Source: Patescibacteria group bacterium
GTDB lineage: Bacteria; Patescibacteriota; Minisyncoccia; Phycocordibacterales; DATDWN01
Assembly (NCBI GenBank): GCA_013816135.1
Contig: JACDEV010000002.1
Coordinates: 33,120-97,119 of the forward strand
DNA length: 64,000 bases
Direction: 5' to 3'
Shown: piece after piece, positions 3,164 through 37,449 of the stretch
Position numbering within the stretch: position 1 is the first letter of the stretch
Layout of the letters: each line of letters starts with the position of its first letter
Program-made: the position numbers and the translations under genes
Notes under the pieces: model-generated
Told to the model about the DNA's origin: nothing
The model's database searches: none
Seen by the model: the letters and a program-made list of their open reading frames with translations, nothing else

Positions 3164-4852
3164 TCAATATTCTTCTACAAATAATCTTGCTAGTCTTATT
3201 TTCAGATAACTTGGTTTTTTCTTTTGCTTCAAAAGTAGATTATAAACCGGAGATAAGGTCATAGTTCCTGTTTTCTTGAAAGCTGAGATAATGTCATCTA
3301 GTTCGCTCCGTTTCAGTTCTCGTTTTAAGTAAGTTATATCTGGACACTTTTTCTCTGCTCTCAACTCCTCCACATGAGAAACAACTGTTTCTGCTTTCAA
3401 TCCTCTAGCATCGGCAATGTCTGATAATGGTACTTCCTGTTCAAGCATTCCCGCAGTGATCTCTTGAGTAGATTTTTTTACTTCTCTATTCTCTTCCTTT
3501 TCTTTTCTTTTTATCTTTAATTTTTCTTCTGGCTCAATTGATTTTATAAATTTCTGTTGGATCTCCTGAATATCTTTTTCCGAAAGCTCATTTAAGTCAG
3601 TGACCGCATCTACTGATAAATCCCGAAATCTTTGATCCATTTCTAAGACTTCTGGATCTACCTCCAGGGCTATATCGTTAAATCCCAAAAGCTTCATACC
3701 TCCAAGTGACCTTACACGTGAAAGAGCAACATATCCCATTCCTTTTACAAACGATTTGGAAAGGTCTACTTCCATAGCATCTAGTGACATTCCCTGACTC
3801 TTATGTACTGTAATAGCCCACGCTAACCTTAAGGGGTACTGTGTAATTTCCGCTTTAACTTTGCCTTCTTCTTCTACTTTCCAAGATTGGGGAGAAACAG
3901 ACAATTTCATGCCGTTAGTTGTTTCCACAATAGGATCACCAAAAGAATTAAAATCAGAAATTACTCCTAATGTTCCGTTTACATAAATACCTTCATTATG
4001 ATTTTTTGTAAACATAACACGAGCACCTTTTTTTAAAGTTAATACCTCAGGAGACAAACAACTTTTTTTTAAACTTTCCATTAGCCCAGATGAGCCTTTC
4101 CATGTCATGTTGTATTCTTTCTCATCACCCTTTATTAGATTAAGGTGTCTTTTGTTCACCACATCTACATCGATGTTGTGAGTATAAACTCTAGTTGCAA
4201 CTGCTCCTGATTCAGGATCTTTATTAAATCTGGTTTTCAAAAGCTCGATAGTTTTTTTAGTAACTTTGTTTTCGCGTATCTGATTCAAGATAGCAAGATA
4301 AGTATTATCCTTTTGGCGATGCTGTTCCGAGAGGTGACAAATGGTAAATTTTGAAGCTAACCAGCTTTCTGCTTTATAAGCAAACTCAGACTCAGCTGAC
4401 TCCCTTATGCCTCTAGTAACAGGCGGTAGTTGAAAAAAATCCCCACATAAAATAATCTGCATACCTCCGAATGGCCTTTCATTATGTTTCATTTGTCGGC
4501 ATATCCACTCTATGAGGTCTAGTCTGAAATGATGTAGCATTGAAACTTCATCAATTATCAAAACCTTAGTACGTTCAAATCTTTTATATAAATACTGTCT
4601 TTCCATCAAATCCTCAATGTCATAATCAGTCAGAATGTCTCTAACTCCCAAACCGGACCATGAATGTATAGTCATTCCACCCAAGTGTGTAGCAGCTATT
4701 CCTGTTGAAGCTGTGACAGCTACATCTACCGCATGAGATTTCAAATAATTTATATAGGAATTCAAAACATAAGTTTTTCCACTTCCCGCCGGGCCTGTCA
4801 AAAAAACATTTTTTCCCATTTTTAAAATATCTAATGCTTCAGATTGCAACAT
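3164..4852 (-). CDS. PIF1/RecD-like ATP-dependent DNA helicase
   Basis: Walker A LTGPAGSGKTYVL and Walker B VLIIDEVSML. SF1 helicase motifs with a RecD/Pif1-type arrangement. Confidence 0.8.
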   Translation of the reverse strand: MLQSEALDILKMGKNVFLTGPAGSGKTYVLNSYINYLKSHAVDVAVTASTGIAATHLGGMTIHSWSGLGVRDILTDYDIEDLMERQYLYKRFERTKVLIIDEVSMLHHFRLDLIEWICRQMKHNERPFGGMQIILCGDFFQLPPVTRGIRESAESEFAYKAESWLASKFTICHLSEQHRQKDNTYLAILNQIRENKVTKKTIELLKTRFNKDPESGAVATRVYTHNIDVDVVNKRHLNLIKGDEKEYNMTWKGSSGLMESLKKSCLSPEVLTLKKGARVMFTKNHNEGIYVNGTLGVISDFNSFGDPIVETTNGMKLSVSPQSWKVEEEGKVKAEITQYPLRLAWAITVHKSQGMSLDAMEVDLSKSFVKGMGYVALSRVRSLGGMKLLGFNDIALEVDPEVLEMDQRFRDLSVDAVTDLNELSEKDIQEIQQKFIKSIEPEEKLKIKRKEKEENREVKKSTQEITAGMLEQEVPLSDIADARGLKAETVVSHVEELRAEKKCPDITYLKRELKRSELDDIISAFKKTGTMTLSPVYNLLLKQKKKPSYLKIRLARLFVEEY

Positions 4853-28198: not shown

Positions 28199-28903
28199 AT
28201 GAATAAAGAAGTTCAAACAAAAAAATACTTATACTCATTTCTAATAACTGTGATTATTTTTTCAACAGCTATTTATATCTCACATTATTTCAATCAAAAG
28301 AAGCTAGATGAAATAAGAAGTATACAAGATAAAATCGCTATAGACATACTTTCATCAGAGACACAATTTTCTTTACTTGAAGAATCATCTTGTAAAGATA
28401 TAGGTTCAGGCACTTTATCTTCTGAGTTAGGTAACCTTGAAGACAAGCTTACATATACTACAAATCAACGAGGTTATAATGATCCGGAAGTACTAACTTT
28501 GAAAAGATACTATGCTCTCCTAGAAATCAAAGACTATCTCTTGATGAACAAGATTAGTCAAAAATGTAAAAAAACACCCCTTTCTATAATCTACTTCTAT
28601 TCCAACGATGGGACATGCGAAGACTGTGAAAGAGAAGGATACGTATTGACCAATTTGCGAGAAACTTATCCTGATCTTAGAGTTTATTCCTTTGATTACA
28701 ATGCCGACCTTTCAGCAGTGAAGACTCTCATCTCTATAAACAAGGTCAAAAATGACTTACCAGCTATCTTCGTCAAAGATAAGGCTTACTATGGTTTTCA
28801 AAGTATAGAAGATGTTGAAAAGGCTGTACCAGAACTTTTAGTTCTAAAAGCTCAGATTGAGGCTTCATCAACTACAAAAACAGCTACAACAACAAAGAAG
28901 TAA
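28199..28903 (+). CDS. membrane-anchored hypothetical protein with a CEDC (CxxC) motif, possibly thioredoxin-like
   Basis: N-terminal TM helix. FYSNDGTCEDCE motif. Thr-rich C-terminal tail. Confidence 0.45.
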   Translation: MNKEVQTKKYLYSFLITVIIFSTAIYISHYFNQKKLDEIRSIQDKIAIDILSSETQFSLLEESSCKDIGSGTLSSELGNLEDKLTYTTNQRGYNDPEVLTLKRYYALLEIKDYLLMNKISQKCKKTPLSIIYFYSNDGTCEDCEREGYVLTNLRETYPDLRVYSFDYNADLSAVKTLISINKVKNDLPAIFVKDKAYYGFQSIEDVEKAVPELLVLKAQIEASSTTKTATTTKK

Positions 28904-28904
28904 T

Positions 28905-31900
28905 TTATTTAGTTTTTGTTCTAAGATACTCTTCTAAGTCCTGATCGAATTTATCCATACTTTTTTCGATCAACTCATCAAAATCAGGAACCACATTTGT
29001 GTGCTCGTCTCCAAAGATACTAGCAAGCTCCTGACGCTGAGATTCATTCCCCAGCAGAATTGCTGAGTACATATGCTCTCCGAATCCTCGTTCAGATTCG
29101 TTGACTTGAAGAAAATTAGAAATATTTTTTCCGTTTCCACAGGTGTCCCCTCCATCTCCAACAAAGTAAAAAGCGGATGCATAGTCAGGAAATTCTTCCA
29201 CTTGTTTGTTAAGCTCAGTTGCTGACTTTTTTATTCCTTCCAGCATATTTGTGCCACCATTTGCATTCAGTCCTTTCATTAATCTGACCTTTATAGTTGA
29301 GTTTGTACCGTCACCAAAATCATACCTTTGAGGTGAGTCGTAGTCTTGTTGGAAACCTTTTATTTCGGTTACGGAATCAGAAAAAGTATCAATTGAAAAT
29401 CTTATGTATCCAAACGCATCAGAAATACGACTAAATAGTTCAGAATAAAATACTAAAAGTTTCCTAGCACTTTTTAATTTTTCTCCTGCCATTGATCCTG
29501 AAACATCCACAAGAATAGAAGCCATAAATCTAGGTTTAATCGAAGGACGGATCTCTCGAGGATTCTTAACCATGCCAAAAATTAGATTTCTTGTTCTCAT
29601 TACTGCCCGACGATTAAATGACCCTTGTCGAGTTAACGAGTCTTCATCTAAACCTACTTCCTCTTGCCTTGGCAAGCGTTCTGCAAAATACTTAAACCAC
29701 TTATCAACTAAAATTGAGACTTCTTCTCGTATATCCTCATATTCACTGTATAGTTTATTCTCCTGTTCTACTTCTTTCTGTACTCGATCAAGATCTTCAA
29801 GTTTTTTTTCGTCTAATTCCTTCAATATTTCATCTCTTTTCTTTTCATCCATAAATCCGTCTTCTACCATCTTATCTACCCCCTCTCTTATCTTATCTTT
29901 CATCTGATCTTCTTTAGCTTCAATCTTATCTTGAAGTTCTTTCTTCATATCATCAAAAATTTCAGCTTCTTCAATCTCTTTTTTCAAATCAGCGAGCTCT
30001 TTGAATTTTTCTGCCTTCTCCATATTTTCATCGAGTCTCTTTTTTTGCTCCCCCATCTTATCCATTGTGTCTTTTGCTTCCTGAAGCTCTGACTCTGACT
30101 GTTCCATTTCTTTGTCTGTTGCATCAGGCATCTGATCTGTCGGGCTTTCCGATTTTCCTTCACCTTTTTCTTTCCCAGGTTTTTTACTTTTCTTTCCTTC
30201 TTTATCACCTTTTTTACTTTCTTTGTCTTGAGGACCTTCTACACCTCCGTCCTCAGCTTCCTCGGAAGATTCGTTGTTTTTTTCTTTATCTTTATCCTTC
30301 TTGTCCTTTTTATCCTCAGGTTTAGGATTCGGTGTAGCATCAAAACGTCTCCAACTATTTCCATCCCATATTTCTGACCAGGCATGGCCAGTACTTTGGG
30401 TAATAGATGATTTTCCTTCCTTAGAACCTTGGACTTTATGTCCTATAATTAGTCGAGCTGGTACTCCTGCCTTACGAACCATCGCAATGAATTTGGTATT
30501 TGCAGAATAACACTCTAGATATTCAGAGCTATCTAAGTTTTGAATATAATTATCACCAGTAGAATCTTTTCGCAATTTATATTGTAAAGCTTGGGCCATT
30601 TGTAAATCTCCACCTCCAGGATAAAAGTGATTGGCAAGTATGTGCTGACGAGCTTGTTCTGCTTTTTGAATTGAATTACCCATCATGCGAGAAATTACTA
30701 CTTCAGTTTTCGCAGATAAAGTACCTTTATAAAGTGAAGTGGAGTCTTCAATAATTGGAGAATTGATAAATGCATTCTCTTCTTTTTGAAAGCTAATTGA
30801 AAATTTAACAGGAGCATTTGCCTTTATATAAAAACATCCATTTTGATCACGAGAAATTTCAGGTTTATCACCTCCTTCATATGTAAGTGATGAAATATCC
30901 AAAGCGTAACTATTTGGTATTGGTAGGGATTTTAAACCCTTATCTAAAATTCCTGAAATAGTAGAGTGATCAAGATTCTTACTTGACTCATTATATAAAG
31001 TAAGTTGTTTCTTCTTGCTCCAAGTCTTTGTCTCCTTATCATAATAGCTTTTCCTTCCACTTATATAATATCCACCTAAAGCTGGTTCAATCTCAAAAAT
31101 AGGCGTTGCTTCCATTTTTTCTTTTGATTCATTACCTTGTGCTGGTGGAGGAGTATGATATTCATCCTGATCATCTTCAGGAATAGCTGGATCTTCGGGT
31201 GCTCCCGGTGGCACAGCTTCCTGTTTGAATTCTTCAAGTTCTTTTTCAAGTTCCTTCATACTGTCACTTGAATCGTTACTTTGTGTTTCTTTTTGGATAG
31301 TTTTTAATTCATCACGGACTGTTTCTGTTAATTTCTTATATCCTTCTTCATTGCCATTCTGAACATATTCGTTGTAAGAATTATTTAGGTTTTCGAATAA
31401 AGCACGTTCGTCTCCTGAGAGCTGAGAAATTGCTGCATCTCTTTCTTCAGATGAAACAAGCTTCATTTCTTCTGATAACCAGTTCATTTTTAAGGCTTTT
31501 AAAACTTTTTCTGATCTAGAAAAATCATTTATTTTCTCAATAGTGTCTTTTGCTTCATTCTCCAACGTATTAATTATTTGTTTTTGTCCTGTATATCCAT
31601 AAGAATCATAAACTTTTTTTTGGATTCTAGATTTTGTTATATGGCTATATAAATTATCGAGCTCCTCGAGTGGAATATCCTTTCCTCTCATACTTTCTAC
31701 AAACTTAGCAAACCTTGGATAATCATAATGTGCAACAAAAGCCGTAGTGTCACGAATACGTGCTGAAACTTTTTCCAATCCTTCTTTTTCTATATCTTCA
31801 GCATTGTATATAAGGGCATCTGGAGTTATGTCGTGAGCTACTTCTTCAGCCGAAAGATTTCCATCCAATAGACCTTGAAGTTTCTCGGCGCGAGAGGCCT

Positions 31901-32057
31901 TATCAACTGGGTGATGTAATGCCCATTCCTTACCCGGTAAAACTTTTATATTTCCTTCTGCTGAACTTTCAGCCAAAAAAATCATCTCACGGCTGAATTT
32001 TGAATTCTTTACATGCTGTGGCTGAAACATTCCACCGAATTTATCTAATCCTTTCAT
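28905..32057 (-). CDS. multidomain protein: transglutaminase-like Cys-peptidase core, K/E/D-rich coiled-coil linker, C-terminal vWA (MIDAS) domain
   Basis: TGase-like core CYSANTKFIAMVRKAGVPARLIIG...GHAWSEIWDGNSWRRFDAT (C/H/D triad). ~250 aa of charged low-complexity coiled coil. vWA MIDAS motif ILVDVSGSMAG plus GGTNM and GDGGDT. Confidence 0.8.
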   Translation of the reverse strand: MKGLDKFGGMFQPQHVKNSKFSREMIFLAESSAEGNIKVLPGKEWALHHPVDKASRAEKLQGLLDGNLSAEEVAHDITPDALIYNAEDIEKEGLEKVSARIRDTTAFVAHYDYPRFAKFVESMRGKDIPLEELDNLYSHITKSRIQKKVYDSYGYTGQKQIINTLENEAKDTIEKINDFSRSEKVLKALKMNWLSEEMKLVSSEERDAAISQLSGDERALFENLNNSYNEYVQNGNEEGYKKLTETVRDELKTIQKETQSNDSSDSMKELEKELEEFKQEAVPPGAPEDPAIPEDDQDEYHTPPPAQGNESKEKMEATPIFEIEPALGGYYISGRKSYYDKETKTWSKKKQLTLYNESSKNLDHSTISGILDKGLKSLPIPNSYALDISSLTYEGGDKPEISRDQNGCFYIKANAPVKFSISFQKEENAFINSPIIEDSTSLYKGTLSAKTEVVISRMMGNSIQKAEQARQHILANHFYPGGGDLQMAQALQYKLRKDSTGDNYIQNLDSSEYLECYSANTKFIAMVRKAGVPARLIIGHKVQGSKEGKSSITQSTGHAWSEIWDGNSWRRFDATPNPKPEDKKDKKDKDKEKNNESSEEAEDGGVEGPQDKESKKGDKEGKKSKKPGKEKGEGKSESPTDQMPDATDKEMEQSESELQEAKDTMDKMGEQKKRLDENMEKAEKFKELADLKKEIEEAEIFDDMKKELQDKIEAKEDQMKDKIREGVDKMVEDGFMDEKKRDEILKELDEKKLEDLDRVQKEVEQENKLYSEYEDIREEVSILVDKWFKYFAERLPRQEEVGLDEDSLTRQGSFNRRAVMRTRNLIFGMVKNPREIRPSIKPRFMASILVDVSGSMAGEKLKSARKLLVFYSELFSRISDAFGYIRFSIDTFSDSVTEIKGFQQDYDSPQRYDFGDGTNSTIKVRLMKGLNANGGTNMLEGIKKSATELNKQVEEFPDYASAFYFVGDGGDTCGNGKNISNFLQVNESERGFGEHMYSAILLGNESQRQELASIFGDEHTNVVPDFDELIEKSMDKFDQDLEEYLRTKTK

Positions 32058-32061
32058 ATTA

Positions 32062-35000
32062 TTATGCCCTTACACGCTTTTTTGAAGTCCAAGTATTCAT
32101 TACTGTTCGAATTCTCTCCTGATCTTCTTTTTTATCTATATGAGTCAAGAAATACTTATCTAAGAGATTCCTAGCTACAGTTTCAGGATTTGCAGTAGCT
32201 TTCTCTTCTGGAGTCATCTTGCTAAGGGAGTATGCACAGCGTCGCAATTCACGACTAGTGATTGGCTGTGTAACAGGCAAAGCATTTCTTGATTCTCTAG
32301 TTTTTTCAAAAACTTTAATAAAGTCTGCTCTTAAATTATTGGAAAATTGGACTAATGCCAAAGAAGCATCCAAATCGAACTTTTGTGTACTTGTAGGGTC
32401 TTGAGCACCGTTCTCTATGCCATTTACATATCTATCCCAAAGTTTTACAAATTCGTTGCGCTCTAAGCTAGCCTCATATGTCAGATCTTCCAGCGAATCT
32501 ATACCTCTTGCCAACCGTAAAGCTTCCGATGCGTCATAAGGCAAATTCGGATTATTATCACCAGTATCTGGATTTCGTTTTAAAGGCGGATAATCTATTT
32601 CCATTTCTACCATACGGCTTCTGGTAGCAAGCTGAGGATCAAATGTTCCAGGATATCCAGGATTCATTGAACCGATCAAAATAACACTAGGTAATGCTTT
32701 TATTGTTTTTCCTGAGCTAGTCTTCAAAGTCAGTGAGCGCTTTTCATCCATAAGAGAATGTAGGAAGATCTGAGCCTGTTCCGGCATAGCATTCAATTCA
32801 TTAAAATAAACTATAGCCCCAGGAGTAGTAATTCCATTAAGTACGGCAGATGGCACCTTCACAGTTTGTGAAGCCCCATCCTTTGATTCGAGCATAACAT
32901 CTTCAGATAATTCAAATTCGGTGGTCCATTTTGAACAATCAATTCCAAAATACGGACGATGTGTTAAAGAAGAAAACATCTTTATCCTAACATCTTTTCC
33001 AGTGCCGGCATGGCCTTTCAAGTTTAAAAGATCTGCTTGCAAATCTAATTGCATCTTCAAAGCTTCTGCCATTTTTTCCAAATCCTTTTCTGTTTGGCTG
33101 TCTATAACCCAATGACTCTGCCATTCAGGAACATAACCTTTGCCGTTAGTATATCCTACTTCAGGCTCAGTTTTTACCTCGTCTATTCGTCTCAAAATTG
33201 AAATATTATGTTCCGCAGCAAAAGCTGAATATTCTTTTAATTTTTCTTTATATTCGTTTTGCCATACAACATCTAGTTCTGGTATTCTTTCACTTTTTTT
33301 TGGCCTTCGAGAATAAGTTTCCTTCAAAGCTTCTCTTTTCTTCTCAAATTCTGTCCTCAAAGGAGATTTTTCTCCTTGTGACCAGTCTGTATATTCTTTC
33401 CTTATATTTTTAAATTCTTTTGCACTCAAATATGATGGTGGAATAGACTCTCCTCGATAAGAAAGCAGTCCTAGTCTCCATTCATTTTCTTGTTCCCAAC
33501 CTTCATATAAACGAACATGTTCAACCTTGCCTGTAGACGTTTTAATTGATAGTGAAATATCGCCATAAATATCTGTAGCTTTGACACCTGGGCCGTGACT
33601 TCTCTCATCTTCTTCGAAAGTGACATCTACTTTACGTTCTACTTTTTCCTTTACTTTGGCTTCCCATTTTGGGAAAGGAGTTTTTCCAAACAAAATCATT
33701 TGCTGTCCTGTTTCTGCTACTTTTGTCATTGCCCCTCTTTCAATTTCGGTCAATGCATTGGAAATTCTTACTTTTAAACCTTTTTCTAATTCTTTTGCAA
33801 CATCAGGATTATCATTTGAAAGGCCCTTTATTTCTATTTCCAAAGTTTTTTTAGCTTCACTAGAAGAAAGGTACTGTTCAGCATCTTTTCTGCTAGTAAA
33901 TCCTTTTGTTCGCAATCTATCAATTAAACCGTCTGCATCTTGAGAAAGTACATCTACAGTCGTTCCTATTCTTTCAGAAGCTTTTTCTCTGACTTTTGCA
34001 TATTCTAATTTAAACTTTTCTTCATTTGTCGCTGCAATATGTTGTAATTCATTTCGAGCAGAGATTATGGCTTTGTATGCTTCATCAGCTTCCAGAGGAA
34101 CATCTTTTAGTAAGGAACCTAGTCTGGATTTTAATTGTGGATATCGGAATTCCAACCAATCATCCATCTGTGATTTGCTGGTAAAAGCTTCAATATCTAC
34201 CCTCGTTCTTTCTATCATTCCTGCTATATCTTTTGTGATCTCTCCACCACGTTGCCGAAAAAGTTCCAAAGACTTTTGTTCAAGTTCAGTCGATAATTCG
34301 CTCACTTCTTCACGTAAGTTATTTTCAAGAAGAGCTTCGACTGCCCTGACCTTGGTCATCATAGCTCTGGCTTCCCCCACAGAAGAAATAGTGAGTCCGC
34401 TGATAAGATTTGCTCGCACTGAAGTTAAAGCCTCTTGTGCAACTTTGAGTGCAAATTCTTTTTCTTTAGAGACAATAGGTTCTTCTAAACCTTCTATAAT
34501 GTAATCAATTTCATTTTGTTTAAGACCTTGTCTTACAAGAACACCTTTGAGTTTTTCAAATCCTTGCCTAACACGAAGTGCATCTTCTTCAGTTGTCATC
34601 TTCGAAATCACCTCACTAATCTGTTCTTTATATTTTATACGCAATGGATCCAGGTGTTCCAAGCTCTCTCCAGTTTTGGCAACCTTCTTTAAAGCTTCTG
34701 CTTCAAAAAGATCTCCAATAGAAACACCTTCTGCGATTTTGGCCACACGTCTTTTCTCCAGCTCTTCTTCAAAATCAGCAAAATTAGGTTCCAATATGAC
34801 CAAGAAACCATCTTTATTGATAGCTCTGATTCTTCCAGTAGAATCAAAATTAACCTGAGTTAGTCCTGGAACTCTCTTAACTTCTTCGAGCGTATCTTTA
34901 GTAATTACAACTAGATCTTCTTTTGAATAAAAAAAGAAAAAATTACCTGTAGGATCTATCTGAAGATTACTTATACTTTCATATTTTTTTGGGAATAGAA

Positions 35001-35949
35001 CTGAAACTGGACTCCATATAGAGGTATCTTGACTCATATCTAATTTAAATACTTCACTAGGATTATTATTTCTACAATAAAATATTGTATTAGGATTTTT
35101 CGGATCCTTTACAATATTATTCTTTATTCCCGAAATATTATCAAAAAAGAGTGGCTTTTCATTTATTTTATTCTTATCTACAATATTTATACCAATATCA
35201 GTAATTAAAACTCCATATTTCTCATGTGAAATATCGCAATATTCCCCGGGCAATCCTTCAAAAGTTTCAATGTATTTCTGCAGGTCTTCTGGAACAACTT
35301 CAGAGTTAGGGTCTATTCTTTTCCAGTTTCGAGGAGCTTGAATAACTCCTGCGGCATTCTCAGTAATGTAGGATATAAATAGATTTTTACCTTTATTACC
35401 AAAAACAATATATTTACCACCATTAAGGATGTGAGCTGAAGGTTCACTAAGTAGAAGGTGTTCTTTTTGATGAAAGTTAGCTATTGGAAAACACCAGTCA
35501 TTACTATGTCTTTTTATAATATCTCCTCCTTTTTTATGTAAAAATGGTGGTAAATCCTTTAAATTGAGTACCATTGAATGTACTTGACTATCATTTCCTA
35601 AGTGAGTTTTTCTTTTGTCTTGAACTATTTTTTTTATATCAATGTCTACATTGGTTTTATTCAATGAATCACTGAAATCCTTAACTTCTTCACCTTTATC
35701 ATCATAAATAGTTATTTTATCTGAATTTTCCAAAACGACTATTGTATAGTCATTCCATGGTAAGATATTTTCAATTTTTTGTGATCTTCCACCTTCTTTA
35801 TTGATCGGTTTTTCAGATCTTCTTATCTCCTTAAGCTCTAGTTCTGCTAATGCCTCATTATCCTTTGGAGCTGATGATTGTTGTGGAACTGGAACATCAC
35901 TATGGGCCGGAATTCCTGACATTGCTCCTTCACGATTAAAAATAGACAT
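32062..35949 (-). CDS. giant (1295 aa) protein with a C-terminal MoxR-like/AAA_5-type AAA+ ATPase domain
   Basis: Walker A LKGHAGTGKD (~33000), Walker B IVYFNELNAM, sensor-1/Arg-finger region ILIGSMNPGYPGTFDPQLATRSRM. The N-terminal ~900 aa are unassigned (possible beta-rich repeats then long helical region). 2 nt separate it from the downstream vWA gene. Confidence 0.75.
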   Translation of the reverse strand: MSIFNREGAMSGIPAHSDVPVPQQSSAPKDNEALAELELKEIRRSEKPINKEGGRSQKIENILPWNDYTIVVLENSDKITIYDDKGEEVKDFSDSLNKTNVDIDIKKIVQDKRKTHLGNDSQVHSMVLNLKDLPPFLHKKGGDIIKRHSNDWCFPIANFHQKEHLLLSEPSAHILNGGKYIVFGNKGKNLFISYITENAAGVIQAPRNWKRIDPNSEVVPEDLQKYIETFEGLPGEYCDISHEKYGVLITDIGINIVDKNKINEKPLFFDNISGIKNNIVKDPKNPNTIFYCRNNNPSEVFKLDMSQDTSIWSPVSVLFPKKYESISNLQIDPTGNFFFFYSKEDLVVITKDTLEEVKRVPGLTQVNFDSTGRIRAINKDGFLVILEPNFADFEEELEKRRVAKIAEGVSIGDLFEAEALKKVAKTGESLEHLDPLRIKYKEQISEVISKMTTEEDALRVRQGFEKLKGVLVRQGLKQNEIDYIIEGLEEPIVSKEKEFALKVAQEALTSVRANLISGLTISSVGEARAMMTKVRAVEALLENNLREEVSELSTELEQKSLELFRQRGGEITKDIAGMIERTRVDIEAFTSKSQMDDWLEFRYPQLKSRLGSLLKDVPLEADEAYKAIISARNELQHIAATNEEKFKLEYAKVREKASERIGTTVDVLSQDADGLIDRLRTKGFTSRKDAEQYLSSSEAKKTLEIEIKGLSNDNPDVAKELEKGLKVRISNALTEIERGAMTKVAETGQQMILFGKTPFPKWEAKVKEKVERKVDVTFEEDERSHGPGVKATDIYGDISLSIKTSTGKVEHVRLYEGWEQENEWRLGLLSYRGESIPPSYLSAKEFKNIRKEYTDWSQGEKSPLRTEFEKKREALKETYSRRPKKSERIPELDVVWQNEYKEKLKEYSAFAAEHNISILRRIDEVKTEPEVGYTNGKGYVPEWQSHWVIDSQTEKDLEKMAEALKMQLDLQADLLNLKGHAGTGKDVRIKMFSSLTHRPYFGIDCSKWTTEFELSEDVMLESKDGASQTVKVPSAVLNGITTPGAIVYFNELNAMPEQAQIFLHSLMDEKRSLTLKTSSGKTIKALPSVILIGSMNPGYPGTFDPQLATRSRMVEMEIDYPPLKRNPDTGDNNPNLPYDASEALRLARGIDSLEDLTYEASLERNEFVKLWDRYVNGIENGAQDPTSTQKFDLDASLALVQFSNNLRADFIKVFEKTRESRNALPVTQPITSRELRRCAYSLSKMTPEEKATANPETVARNLLDKYFLTHIDKKEDQERIRTVMNTWTSKKRVRA

Positions 35950-36372
35950 ATGATTTAAGTTAGATTAATTCTAACTTATTAATTTTATAAAAGCCAAGGA
36001 GAACAACACACTGTCAGGTTTTCCTTCGCCTCTCAAACTTGTCGTCACGTGGCCGTTCGCCTCCTTACAGGAGCAGTACACCTTGCCTGGTTTTTTCATT
36101 CACTTTGTTCTGAAAAAACCAGGCAAGGTCTTGCGACTGGGACCCTTATCCCAGTCTCACCTCTCAGGTAAACCTGACAGCGTGGCACGCAAAAATCCGC
36201 TTTCGCGGATTTTTTCGTGAGCCACCTTGTCTTCTGGGAAACACCACAAGAGTACTTCCATTTGCTAAAGCAAATTAGGTCGCCCACGGTTTTCCCAATC
36301 CTTCCTCCACGGGAAACTCCCGTTTCCCGACCCCTTCCCGCTGACAGGAAAATCTCACTAATGTGAGATTTT

Positions 36373-36448
36373 TGGAGCCACCTGTCAGGTTTGAACTGAC
36401 GACCTGCCGTTTACAAAACGGCTGCTCTACCAACTGAGCTAAGGTGGC
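36373..36448 (-). tRNA. tRNA-Thr (anticodon UGU), CCA encoded
   Basis: Reverse complement GCCACCTTAGCTCAGTTGGTAGAGCAGCCGTTTTGTAAACGGCAGGTCGTCAGTTCAAACCTGACAGGTGGCTCCA folds as a cloverleaf. 7-bp acceptor stem, anticodon loop TTTGTAA, T-arm GTCAG/CTGAC. Confidence 0.85.
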
Positions 36449-36564
36449 AATAATTAAATTCGTGGCGGGCAGGGCTAAGGTGGCAATATTTACTTTTAAT
36501 CCTAGGCTTTAGGCCACCAAATTAACTCATTGAATTTAACATTCTTCGAGCTTTATTTCAAGCT

Positions 36565-36945
36565 TTAAACCTTGTTGCTTTTTATACCTGGTCTCTCTTC
36601 TGACAATCTTTCAAGGAAAAAAGAAACAGATCCATTACTTCGGAGTATTCTTCTTCCACGAAGATCATCTCCAGCGCTATAGTATTTTTTTGCTACATAA
36701 TCCTTCAATCGAACGATAAGTTCATATAAGTATGAAGGTAAAAAATCAAACAAAAATAGGTTCATTATTTTACGATATAGATTGTACTTGCTAATACCGT
36801 GATTTATCAAAGCATGTATCTTCACATCTCCTTTGTGAAAAAGGTCAGATAAAAAGCCGATCTTTTTAACCTTAGTTTCAAAGATCTTTGAAACTACCAA
36901 CATAAACAATACGAACAAAGATAATACAAATAATACAGTTGTCAT
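36565..36945 (-). CDS. hypothetical membrane-anchored protein
   Basis: 126-aa ORF with an N-terminal TM helix. Confidence 0.4.
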   Translation of the reverse strand: MTTVLFVLSLFVLFMLVVSKIFETKVKKIGFLSDLFHKGDVKIHALINHGISKYNLYRKIMNLFLFDFLPSYLYELIVRLKDYVAKKYYSAGDDLRGRRILRSNGSVSFFLERLSEERPGIKSNKV

Positions 36946-36954
36946 AATATTTAA

Positions 36955-37449
36955 TTATTTAGAAACAGAGTATCGAGTGAACCTGGATATTTCTATGTTT
37001 TCGCCAAATTTCTGAACTGCCCTCTGGATAAGGCTCAAAATCGTTATCTCTGGGTTTTTTATAAAAGGTTGATTTAACAATACATCTTCTGGTTCTCCAC
37101 CTTCGGTCACGTCTTCCAATTTTAGGAAGCGAGGATTAGCGGCAGCGATGTGCATTGCTATGTCGCGAGCCATTTTCTTGAATTCTTCGTTCTGTGCAAC
37201 GAAGTCTGTCTCACATAGTAATTCTACCATAGTGCCTACAGTTCCGGTAGCATGAATATAAGAAGAAACTACTCCTGCAGCCAAAGTTCTATCACCTTTT
37301 TTGCTAGCAATATCAGCGCTTTTTGCCTGTAATATAGCCACTGCCTTCTCCTTATCCCCACCTGCTTCCTCTAATGCCTTCTTACACTGCATGACAGATA
37401 CACCCGTCATGTCACGTAACTCTTTTATAAGTTCTGTTGTTATTTCCAT
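36955..37449 (-). CDS. tsf: elongation factor Ts (short form)
   Basis: N-terminal UBA-like ELRDMTGVSVMQCKKALEEAGGD. Adjacent to rpsB. Confidence 0.85.
   Translation of the reverse strand: MEITTELIKELRDMTGVSVMQCKKALEEAGGDKEKAVAILQAKSADIASKKGDRTLAAGVVSSYIHATGTVGTMVELLCETDFVAQNEEFKKMARDIAMHIAAANPRFLKLEDVTEGGEPEDVLLNQPFIKNPEITILSLIQRAVQKFGENIEISRFTRYSVSK

Follow-up and report, generated by a model that had tools for sequence, protein, structure and literature searches.

Candidate gene-free integrative cassettes with a target-matched stem behind tRNA-Thr and at other gene ends in Patescibacteria

The question raised by this locus is why the sequence directly behind a tRNA gene should be GC-rich, dense in hairpins and interspersed with copies of the tRNA's own ends. 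The locus lies in a stretch of 64,000 nucleotides from a Patescibacteria group bacterium (contig JACDEV010000002.1, positions 33,120 to 97,119; referred to as the window, in whose numbering all positions are given), and its tRNA gene, the only one in the window, is a tRNA-Thr(UGU) at 36373-36448 on the minus strand (ARAGORN; Rfam tRNA, 69.6 bits), upstream of a giant AAA+ ATPase gene. A sequence-only reading had suggested that the structured stretch is the leader of the AAA+ operon, the scar of an element that delivered this operon, or an unclassified non-coding RNA. It is shown here that positions 36007-36372 constitute a tandem array of a module A in its long form, a module B, and the 3′ stump of a module C. 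With a confidence somewhat better than even, we interpret these modules as three small, non-coding and non-autonomous integrative cassettes that recombine through a stem matched to their target, and as neither the leader nor an attachment (att) scar of the AAA+ operon. The module cores are conserved and covary, the same layout of repeats recurs with tRNAs of 31 types and with protein genes of four different kinds, presence among relatives is patchy, and the orphan gene-end copies that accompany the cores are conserved in the manner of coding sequence.

The composition of the locus confirms the hairpin-dense, GC-rich stretch that had first attracted attention. The GC fraction is 0.49-0.505 over 36000-36499 as opposed to 0.25-0.40 on either side, all tRNA-end copies reported earlier are present, and so are both hairpins, one with 19-nt arms (ACCTTGCCTGG...CCAGGCAAGGT, 36080-36098 / 36111-36129, 100% complementary) and one with 15-nt arms (AAAAATCCGC-TTTC-GCGGATTTTT, 36186-36200 / 36205-36219). 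The minus strand from 36372 to 35990 folds at -171.1 kcal/mol (z = -9.4) and the plus strand at -150.5 kcal/mol. The source of the repeats is the last ~20 nt of tRNA-Thr, comprising the end of the T-loop, the 3′ strands of T-stem and acceptor, and CCA, and is designated S1. Its segment AAACCTGACAG occurs within the tRNA at 36382-36392, in the same orientation at 36011-36021 and inverted at 36170-36180, so that both reported copies of the tRNA 3′ end exist, one base away from the positions first assigned to them; these three matches per 64 kb compare with 0.05 expected, and none of 100 shuffled sequences yielded three. Two further repeats had been overlooked, namely GAGCCACCT at 36219-36227 and an inverted 19-nt pair at 36007-36025 / 36166-36184 (89%). 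The AAA+ gene does start at 35949, as had been noted, but the structured stretch does not run straight into it, as ~58 AT-rich bases intervene.

Read along the minus strand, the modules each lie behind a terminator-like hairpin and are flanked by copies of the tRNA 3′ end, an inverted one termed AS and a direct one termed S2. The array opens with hairpin T1 (AAAATCTCAC-ATTA-GTGAGATTTT, 36349-36372), a terminator-like tail of the tRNA whose 10-nt arms are 100% complementary and which has counterparts behind tRNA-Thr in relatives. T1 is followed by AS(A) (CCUGUCAG, 36341-36348), recognized by reading as an inverted copy of CUGACAGG from the 3′ part of the tRNA. To the closing stem of module A, AS(A) contributes the 5′ strand, and full-length versions are found at related loci (given as L numbers), namely L030 (GCCACCUGUCAG) and L018 (GCCACUUGUCAG...). 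The module A core at 36234-36340, of which 36273-36340 is matched by covariance model R2 with E = 4e-15, is composed of GGGAAGGGGUC, hairpin H1 (GGGAAAC-GGGA-GUUUCCC), GUGGAGGAAGGAUU, and hairpin H3 (UGGGAAA...UUUCCCA) with an extra domain in the H3 loop, a long form that L018 and L088 share with the window. S2(A) (GACAAGGUGGCUC, 36219-36231) provides the 3′ strand of this stem; it repeats the tRNA 3′ end GACAGGUGGCUC in direct orientation but is longer by a single A, a version also seen in L030 and L029. The second terminator-like tail, hairpin T2 (CACGAAAAAAUCCGC-GAAA-GCGGAUUUUUGCGUG, an inverted repeat at 36186-36218), leads to AS(B) (GCCACGCUGUCAGGUUU, 36165-36186), which contains the tRNA segment AAACCUGACAG(G)GUGGC in inverted orientation (inverted repeats, one of 11 nt at 100%) followed by the hairpin CAGG-UUUA-CCUG; across loci, this small hairpin covaries (CAGAC/GUCUG, CAGGC/GCCUG, CAGAGUC/GACUCUG). 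The module B core (36056-36161; covariance model R1, 107 bits, E = 1.5e-25) consists of GGUGAG, the P2 hairpin, CGCAAGAC, P3 with its perfect 19-bp stem, GGUGUACUG, P4 (CUCC-UGUAA-GGAG), and GCGAA. What remains of module C is a truncated 3′ end (GUGACGACAAGUUUGAGAGGCGAAGGAAAACCUGACAGUGUG, 36007-36048) that agrees with the module C 3′ end of L014 at 33 of 39 aligned positions, aligns also with L024 and L037, and contains the same-orientation tRNA-end copy at 36011-36021. As the sequence reproduced in AS(B) is that of the genuine tRNA end, T-loop bases included (AAACCUGACAG), and not that of S2(A), the arrangement fits module A having entered between the tRNA and an older module B. Module A is thus probably the younger of the two, in the order expected for repeated entry at one site.

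The modular nature of the array becomes apparent from a comparative panel obtained by scanning species-representative genomes with the S2 protein, the rpsB product. The scan yielded 80 loci. A total of 76 loci, with the window and its source contigs L001/L002 counted in, keep the order rpsB-tsf-(small open reading frame)-tRNA-Thr and served as an empty-site panel. Judged by the genes beside the tRNA and by an exact protein match, the window itself belongs to a metagenome-assembled Patescibacteria genome near Candidatus Zambryskibacteria. Only some of these loci carry modules at tRNA-Thr: module A stands alone behind the tRNA in L030, L018, L021, and L050; module B alone in L007, L027, L010, L048, L065, L004, and L003; a module C of ~150 nt is found in L012, L014, L024, and L037; and L008, L013, L025, and L035 have only the terminator-like hairpin. 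Hybrid or truncated copies exist as well, exemplified by L029 and the C stump of the window. Downstream inverted copies of the tRNA end were detected at 20 of the 76 loci and direct copies at 13, compared with a single locus for the 5′ part of the tRNA used as a control, which bears out the earlier suspicion that tRNA-end copies are footprints of insertion at the tRNA. The suspicion of unclassified but conserved structured elements proved equally well founded, two families being recovered by covariance models. The gene following the modules differs among loci and is convergent in L007, L027, L004, L003, and L050; because it is so often convergent and variable among relatives, the modules are not part of the AAA+ operon.

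For module B, model R1 was built from a five-sequence seed by covariance-model realignment, a MAFFT alignment having misplaced the P2 hairpin, and a search of 0.89 Mb with this model returned 13 copies, including the one in the window. In the alignment of these 13 sequences, pairing holds for 97.3% of the cells, and for 16 of the 18 pairs both sides have changed in a compensatory manner. Covariation reaches a score of 0.646, compared with 0.222 for shuffled alignments (0/500 reach the observed value) and with at most 0.136 when pairing partners are slid. The tRNA-sense strand is the better folding one in 10 of the 13 instances. Module B is also present away from tRNAs, twice in L006 and once in L043, and one copy behind tRNA-Lys has flanks that imitate tRNA-Lys rather than tRNA-Thr. 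At L006:4708-4809 (+), a B copy sits within the last codons of a release-factor gene, is bordered by AAGAGG...AAGAGG, and brings a new in-frame stop; judged by its borders, it looks like a MITE-like insertion (miniature inverted-repeat transposable element) with a 6-nt duplication.

Module A is far more widespread. A gapped pattern of its core was compared with metagenome contigs and found on at least 120 of them; 122 instances among the matches listed were studied. The near-invariant order of the core is GGAAAGGGGUC, H1, GUGGAGGAAGG, an optional hairpin, and H3 with the loop ACCGUGGG. Covariation is evident at an inner H1 pair (AU 35 / CG 27), at one H3 pair (GC 32 / CG 17 / UA 15), and in the optional hairpin. 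Of the 122 instances, 81 lie directly behind a tRNA on the same strand, with 31 anticodon types represented, and the tRNA-sense strand folds better in 77 of 90. No protein family recurs around these instances: all-against-all clustering of 1088 open reading frames within 3.5 kb of the 122 instances gave a largest cluster of only 9/122. A GA-rich hairpin of the form NGAAC-GNA-GUGAN, with tandem G.A pairs and K-loop-like, was observed in 23 of 58 tRNA-linked cassettes, for example, in the spacer between tRNA and AS in L092, L121, L182, L084, L117, and L118. The optional hairpin of module A is similar in some copies (CGAGC-GAAG-UGAG, e.g., in L104 and L166), and the GA-rich hairpin may be a protein-binding motif.

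At tRNAs, the layout is constant and reads tRNA 3′ end (S1), short hairpin, AS, core, and S2. The short hairpin is either terminator-like or of the GA-rich GAACGNAGUGA type, AS is the reverse complement of the T-arm/acceptor 3′ part of the very same tRNA (median 12 nt), and S2 is a direct copy of that part (median 14 nt). In module A, the flanks pair at -17.2 kcal/mol with each other and at -10.9 kcal/mol with mismatched partners, the true partner being superior in 88% of 90 cases. S2 runs into genomic trailer sequence such as CACAA rather than into CCA and must therefore have been copied from DNA or precursor rather than from mature tRNA, which rules out a retro-copy of the mature molecule. 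A diversity-generating retroelement was likewise rejected: over 66 A instances, 114 of 314 mismatches (36%) have an A as the S1 base, a mild excess that is not adenine-specific, and no reverse transcriptase cluster was found. In L106 (~4120-4185), the tRNA 3′ end, the terminator, and the inverted copy form a perfect palindrome with 29-nt arms; since S2 has already diverged in this locus, the two tRNA-end copies differ in age or in maintenance. In L113 and L114, the intact tRNA is separated from module A by the 3′ halves of pseudo-tRNAs or by a second, degenerate tRNA, and the cassette flanks match the pseudo copy; these pieces are consistent with several rounds of insertion.

The same layout is encountered where no tRNA is present. 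Module A instances were found at the 3′ end of rpmG (L33) and at the 5′ ends of GT4 glycosyltransferase, rplP (L16), and rnhA genes, all confirmed by Pfam, and at the three 5′-end targets the gene is on the opposite strand. Proceeding outward from the gene body, one invariably meets, in this sequence, body, site, tail, AS, core, site′, and tail′. Here, "site" denotes 12-17 nt inside the gene end and "tail" the rest of it, that is, trailer and hairpin for a tRNA and the last or first codons with the stop or start codon for a protein gene, while site′-tail′, corresponding to S2, repeats the gene end as an orphan. The gene end is thus present twice over 13-62 nt (median 26; 66 A instances), one copy being continuous with the intact gene and the other located beyond the core. 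AS, an inverted copy of the inner 12-17 nt of the gene end, directly precedes the core and pairs with site′, enclosing the core in a stem of target sequence. It follows from this fixed order that the core is antisense to the gene at 5′ targets, a circumstance that a DNA-level event which has to leave the gene intact explains readily, but that is difficult to square with a function exerted only as RNA and in connection with the host transcript. In the rpmG cassettes L130, L125, and L141, CTGCTTGTGG in the orphan site takes the place of CTGCAAGTGG or CTGCAAATGG in the live gene. The AA-to-TT change is conserved, introduces a 2x2 mismatch halfway along the closing stem, and could indicate the point of crossover or cleavage.

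The orphan copies at protein genes retain the signature of coding sequence. Over 16 loci, live and orphan copies share 110 identical codons and differ at 116 codons synonymously and at 49 non-synonymously; the reading frames were set by the best peptide alignment, a procedure that favors similar peptides. The rpmG locus L149 has eight synonymous and no non-synonymous codon differences. Stretches of 14-20 identical residues over codons of which ~50% have diverged would not be expected from neutral decay, and the pattern indicates that selection has acted on the spare gene end at the level of the protein. Such selection would fit use of the spare end whenever the cassette is absent, i.e., reversible integration, and it would fit equally the arrival of one of the two copies from a related genome.

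How might such an arrangement have come about? In the proposed mechanism, a cassette of the form [site-tail-AS-core] would enter a gene end by a single reciprocal exchange inside site, in the manner of a Campbell-type integration, and would probably leave by the same kind of exchange. As the cassette would bring its own spare gene end, the gene would stay intact, and a single exchange within site would produce exactly the observed order together with an intact gene. Repeated entry at one site, with the newest arrival next to the tRNA, would generate an array such as A-B-C. The near-invariant core and the target-matched stem would then serve as a handle for machinery encoded elsewhere in the genome, which could be an activity that depends on RNA or a recombinase that works on a folded strand.

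Several observations weigh against integration by this route. No near-identical pair of genomes with and without a cassette was found; the rpmG loci fetched were from other lineages or empty, and the empty-site test at rpmG returned only cassette-free lineages in which rpmG is followed by tRNA-Trp or a terminator. Nor was a circular junction seen. No integrase, recombinase, transposase, or reverse transcriptase recurs near the 122 listed A instances, and a phage origin was discarded after exact-pattern scans for A and B in 2.9 million viral contigs gave 0 matches. A single crossover accounts for S1 and S2 but not for more than 35 host fragments with matching inverted copies, and the repeats of the tRNA class are short for homologous exchange. 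Where S1 and S2 differ, AS agrees with S1 in 58 cases and with S2 in two, which fits an RNA role and means that the AS:S2 closing stem is not kept by compensatory change; compensatory evolution of this stem was indeed not seen, the bias of G-U over A-C being weak (24 vs 17). The alignment-based choice of frames in the codon comparison calls for caution as well. Finally, the strong conservation of the core, the better folding of the tRNA-sense strand, and the fact that no terminator-like hairpin separates the core from the tRNA in 38 of the 58 tRNA-linked A copies also fit an RNA function.

These last points lead to the alternative that the modules are ordinary, immobile chromosomal genes for non-coding RNAs, such as ribonucleoprotein scaffolds, regulators, or ribozymes, which are co-transcribed with the host gene, the repeats being by-products of local duplication and the target-like stem serving folding or processing, for instance, as a tRNA-minihelix mimic for RNase P or RNase Z. 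We regard this as doubtful. Besides the features just listed, it would account for the covariation in B, for the near-invariant, single-stranded and purine-rich core of A, for the position on the same strand at a fixed short distance behind tRNAs, and for the GA-rich, K-loop-like hairpins typical of protein-binding RNA, and in L030 and L018 the stem reproduces acceptor and T-stem exactly. It is at odds, however, with the antisense cores at the GT4, rplP, and rnhA 5′ ends, where no tRNA promoter lies upstream, with the terminator-like hairpins ahead of each module in the clade of the window, with the patchy presence among close relatives and the truncated or hybrid copies, and with orphan gene ends that keep a coding potential for which RNA processing has no need. 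Moreover, many stems are no clean minihelix, since that of L084 lacks an acceptor part and that of L106 pairs across discriminator, CCA, and trailer. An unlikelier proposal is that the cassette encodes, or itself is, a programmable targeting molecule in which the core would act as scaffold for a trans-encoded enzyme and the AS/site′ arms would direct recombination or cleavage, following the logic of IS110 bridge RNAs, of TIGR tigRNAs, or of the folded single-stranded att sites of CTX phage and integron attC. An invariant core whose flanks change with the target (31 tRNA types, four protein genes), arms that match both target strands, the perfect S1-hairpin-AS palindrome of L106, and the existence of dual-strand guide systems in bacteria of the candidate phyla radiation (CPR) (PMC12045711) all speak for such a molecule. 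Yet bridge RNA and tigRNA guides cover adjacent, non-overlapping stretches on opposite target strands (PMC12045711), whereas AS and site′ both represent a single stretch and form pairs between them; none of the 122 listed A instances has an IS110, Tas, or Xer-like gene beside it, Rfam gives no match, and the reading of the arms as guides is a proposal. Quite improbable, in turn, is an intron-like or viroid-like RNA element with a self-cleaving or self-splicing core, in which AS would be a guide pairing with the identical site of S1 and of S2, an RNA of unit length would be excised or circularized, and the transcript would be rejoined to the spare gene end. AS can in fact pair with S1 or S2, small ribozymes typically combine variable stems with an unpaired core that does not vary, both copies of the gene end have remained coding, and group I introns are common in tRNA genes of Patescibacteria, although the paper in question concerns anticodon-loop introns only (PMC13011429). 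On the other hand, no ribozyme or intron of Rfam matches even at E <= 10, the mRNA of 5′-end targets would contain the core in antisense, the live gene copy is complete without splicing, and a core of ~70 nt is far smaller than group I or group II introns.

The two explanations that tie the structured stretch to the AAA+ operon fare worse still. On the minus strand at 28905-35949, outside the cassettes, lie the genes for an AAA_5 ATPase (1295 aa) and a transglutaminase/vWA protein (1050 aa), assigned by Pfam. This pair is a conserved two-gene unit that occurs in differing neighborhoods in Parcubacteria with 60-67% identity and is found at the tRNA-Thr site only in the present lineage. It abuts, stop-to-stop, a conserved and convergent gene for a thioredoxin-like membrane protein (28199-28903, plus strand; tblastn), which shows 57-76% identity (E <= 1e-86) to the convergent gene downstream of tRNA-Thr in L007, L030, L004, and L050. 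In relatives, this gene follows directly upon the trailer or modules of tRNA-Thr, or upon one small gene (L030). Since it stands directly behind the pair in the window, the AAA+/transglutaminase pair must be regarded as a lineage-specific insertion. That the tRNA-end repeats are the att scar of an island that carried this operon into tRNA-Thr is nevertheless very improbable. True, the 7-kb pair is missing from the site in more than 70 relatives and sits between the tRNA trailer and a conserved neighbor gene, it has in one instance an IS200-type transposase beside it in other Parcubacteria, and the tRNA-end copy at 36011-36021 is 60 nt before the operon. However, this copy belongs to the 3′ end of module C, no further copy with up to three mismatches exists at the far end of the pair or elsewhere in the window, none of the ten open reading frames scanned around the locus has an integrase domain, and the same repeats are found in relatives devoid of the operon. 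The direct tRNA 3′-end repeats that would delimit a tRNA island are therefore lacking at the ends of the 7-kb pair and present around modules of ~100-150 nt. The suspicion of a scar contains a correct element, in that the pair is inserted at this site, but the repeats bracket the cassettes only. A long structured 5′ leader or riboswitch of the operon, as had also been proposed, deserves hardly any credence, notwithstanding the same strand, the direct adjacency, and the very stable fold. Modules occur without the operon and the operon without modules: upstream of the orthologous pairs L203-L209 (62-67% identity), nhmmer and ARAGORN revealed no module and only unrelated tRNAs in L207. The region contains two terminator-like hairpins, and a promoter-like site, TTGGCT-18-TAGAAT (35997->35968, minus strand; 9/12 in a scan for consensus matches), separates the array from the ATG and presumably serves the AAA+ gene. 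Orthologous AAA+ genes are likewise preceded by a short AT-rich stretch, in which TAnAAT lies ~12-20 nt ahead of the ATG. A long structured leader is not a feature of the giant AAA+ operon, and a false lead at this locus is thereby removed. An IS200-type Y1 transposase open reading frame was observed ~150-550 nt upstream of the AAA+ gene in three Komeilibacteria contigs among L203-L206; in L203, it was not called and appears to be a degraded copy.

Searches for a known family to which the modules might belong gave a consistent picture. With Rfam 15, only the tRNA exceeded the gathering threshold in the window, and lowering the threshold to E <= 10 added only sub-threshold matches to miRNA-like hairpins; at this threshold, nothing was obtained for a typical module A or for module C. 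In 27 related loci, only tRNA, rRNA, and one group I intron were found, the latter in the 16S rRNA gene of a cassette-bearing contig (L152:8628-9066, 72 bits). The families without a match include tmRNA, RNase P, signal recognition particle (SRP) RNA, 6S, riboswitches, small ribozymes, group I/II introns, Drum, ROOL, GOLLD, and HEARO; the absence of RNase P, tmRNA, and SRP RNA had been stated before and is upheld by ARAGORN and Rfam. Comparison by eye with RNase P CR-I/P4, hammerhead, hepatitis delta virus-like ribozyme, and SRP motifs yielded none that is consistent, and full-text literature searching retrieved no published description of the elements. No described RNA or mobile-element family was thus found, in Rfam or in the literature, to match the cassettes.

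The closest systems differ in instructive ways. P4-type islands in tRNA genes as well as phage 21 and e14 in icd enter a gene end and carry a replacement for it. The cassettes resemble such gene-end integrative elements in that direct gene-end repeats flank the insert, the gene remains intact with the displaced copy beside it, tandem accretion occurs at one tRNA, and presence among relatives is patchy. In contrast, they measure only ~100-250 bp, are free of genes including an integrase, add an inverted copy of the crossover region beside a conserved structured core, and serve more than 35 unrelated target sequences with one core family. Integron cassettes with their attC sites and CTX-type phage integrate through folded single-stranded att sites. 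With these, the modules described here share small units that are probably non-autonomous and mobilized in trans, arrays, a hairpin-forming imperfect palindrome that marks the unit boundary (S1-hairpin-AS is palindromic, and so is AS-core-S2), and a folded stem imitating a duplex site. Their stem, though, equals the target gene, their cargo is a non-coding core without an open reading frame, and neither an integron integrase nor attI or dif is nearby; no recurrent recombinase gene was found and the stems are target-specific, core boxes not having been searched for specifically. Bacterial MITEs and structured intergenic repeats (REP/BIME, Correia, RPE) are small, non-coding, multi-copy, and hairpin-rich, and are sometimes co-transcribed. 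The same size, multiplicity, hairpin content, and location in or beside genes characterize the cassettes, but the copies of module A have no terminal inverted repeats in common, their termini being taken in each case from the target, and the flanking duplications are long, variable (13-62 nt, median 26), and end at a gene boundary. tRNA-like processing signals are known from mascRNA/MALAT1, from the tRNA-like element before 5S rRNA in Haloferax, and from tRNA 3′-trailer small RNAs. The position directly behind a tRNA and, in some copies, a closing stem equal to acceptor plus T-stem recall these signals, whereas cassettes are also located at protein-gene ends and the stem often has no free discriminator/CCA; L030 and L018 fit a minihelix and L084 and L106 do not. 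IS110 bridge RNAs and TIGR tigRNAs (PMC11208160; PMC12045711) offer a conserved scaffold with exchangeable segments that match both target strands, and are present in CPR bacteria. The cassettes depart from them in that AS and S2 cover the same stretch, are mutually complementary, and comprise 12-17 nt plus a long gene-end copy, in addition to lacking an adjacent recombinase or Tas gene and any sequence or Rfam similarity. A group I intron, finally, finds no Rfam match and is contradicted by the uninterrupted host gene copy. As each of the nearest known systems fails in at least one defining feature, the elements are filed under no existing family.

Patescibacteria have tiny genomes and have been considered poor in mobile DNA. 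Should the integrative reading hold, they would carry a widespread family of gene-free insertion cassettes directed to the ends of tRNA, ribosomal-protein, and other housekeeping genes without damaging them, the targeting part being a copy of the target itself. In CPR genomes, such cassettes would explain many structured stretches between genes that are GC-rich and lack annotation, as well as many pseudo gene ends. Going beyond this reading, it is conceivable, although we hold the idea only tentatively, that A, B, and C represent an undescribed class of minimal, target-programmable mobile elements of Patescibacteria, composed of a ~70-110-nt core, a closing stem that is a duplex copy of the target, and a spare gene end, and capable of reversible integration at almost any conserved gene end by means of a trans-encoded activity or a core ribozyme. 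If the invariant core proves to be recognized by a recombination system matched to its target by sequence, such a system could be of interest for programmable integration. A and B add at least two conserved RNA-like motifs.

The 5′ side of the tRNA has repeats of its own. A direct copy of the tRNA 5′ end is present on the minus strand at 36474-36492 (TAAATATTGCCACCTTAGC), as had been noticed, although it is a 19-nt rather than a 15-nt repeat, comprising 11 nt of tRNA and 8 nt of leader and being 95% identical to 36438-36456. Such copies 36-117 nt upstream of tRNA-Thr were observed at six independent loci of the 76 (36438-36492 in the window, L039, L041, L066, L068, and L074), and those in L039, L041, and L068 have the appearance of 5′ halves of pseudo-tRNAs (GCCACCTTAGCTGTCTTGGTAGGTG). 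Cassettes once located on the 5′ side might have left these copies behind as scars. The other neighbors of the window locus are rpsB, a release factor gene, and a short form of tsf (36955-37449, minus strand), which encodes an elongation factor Ts of 164 aa. Between tsf and tRNA-Thr, the window and its relatives have a conserved 126-aa open reading frame, which occupies 36565-36945 in the window.

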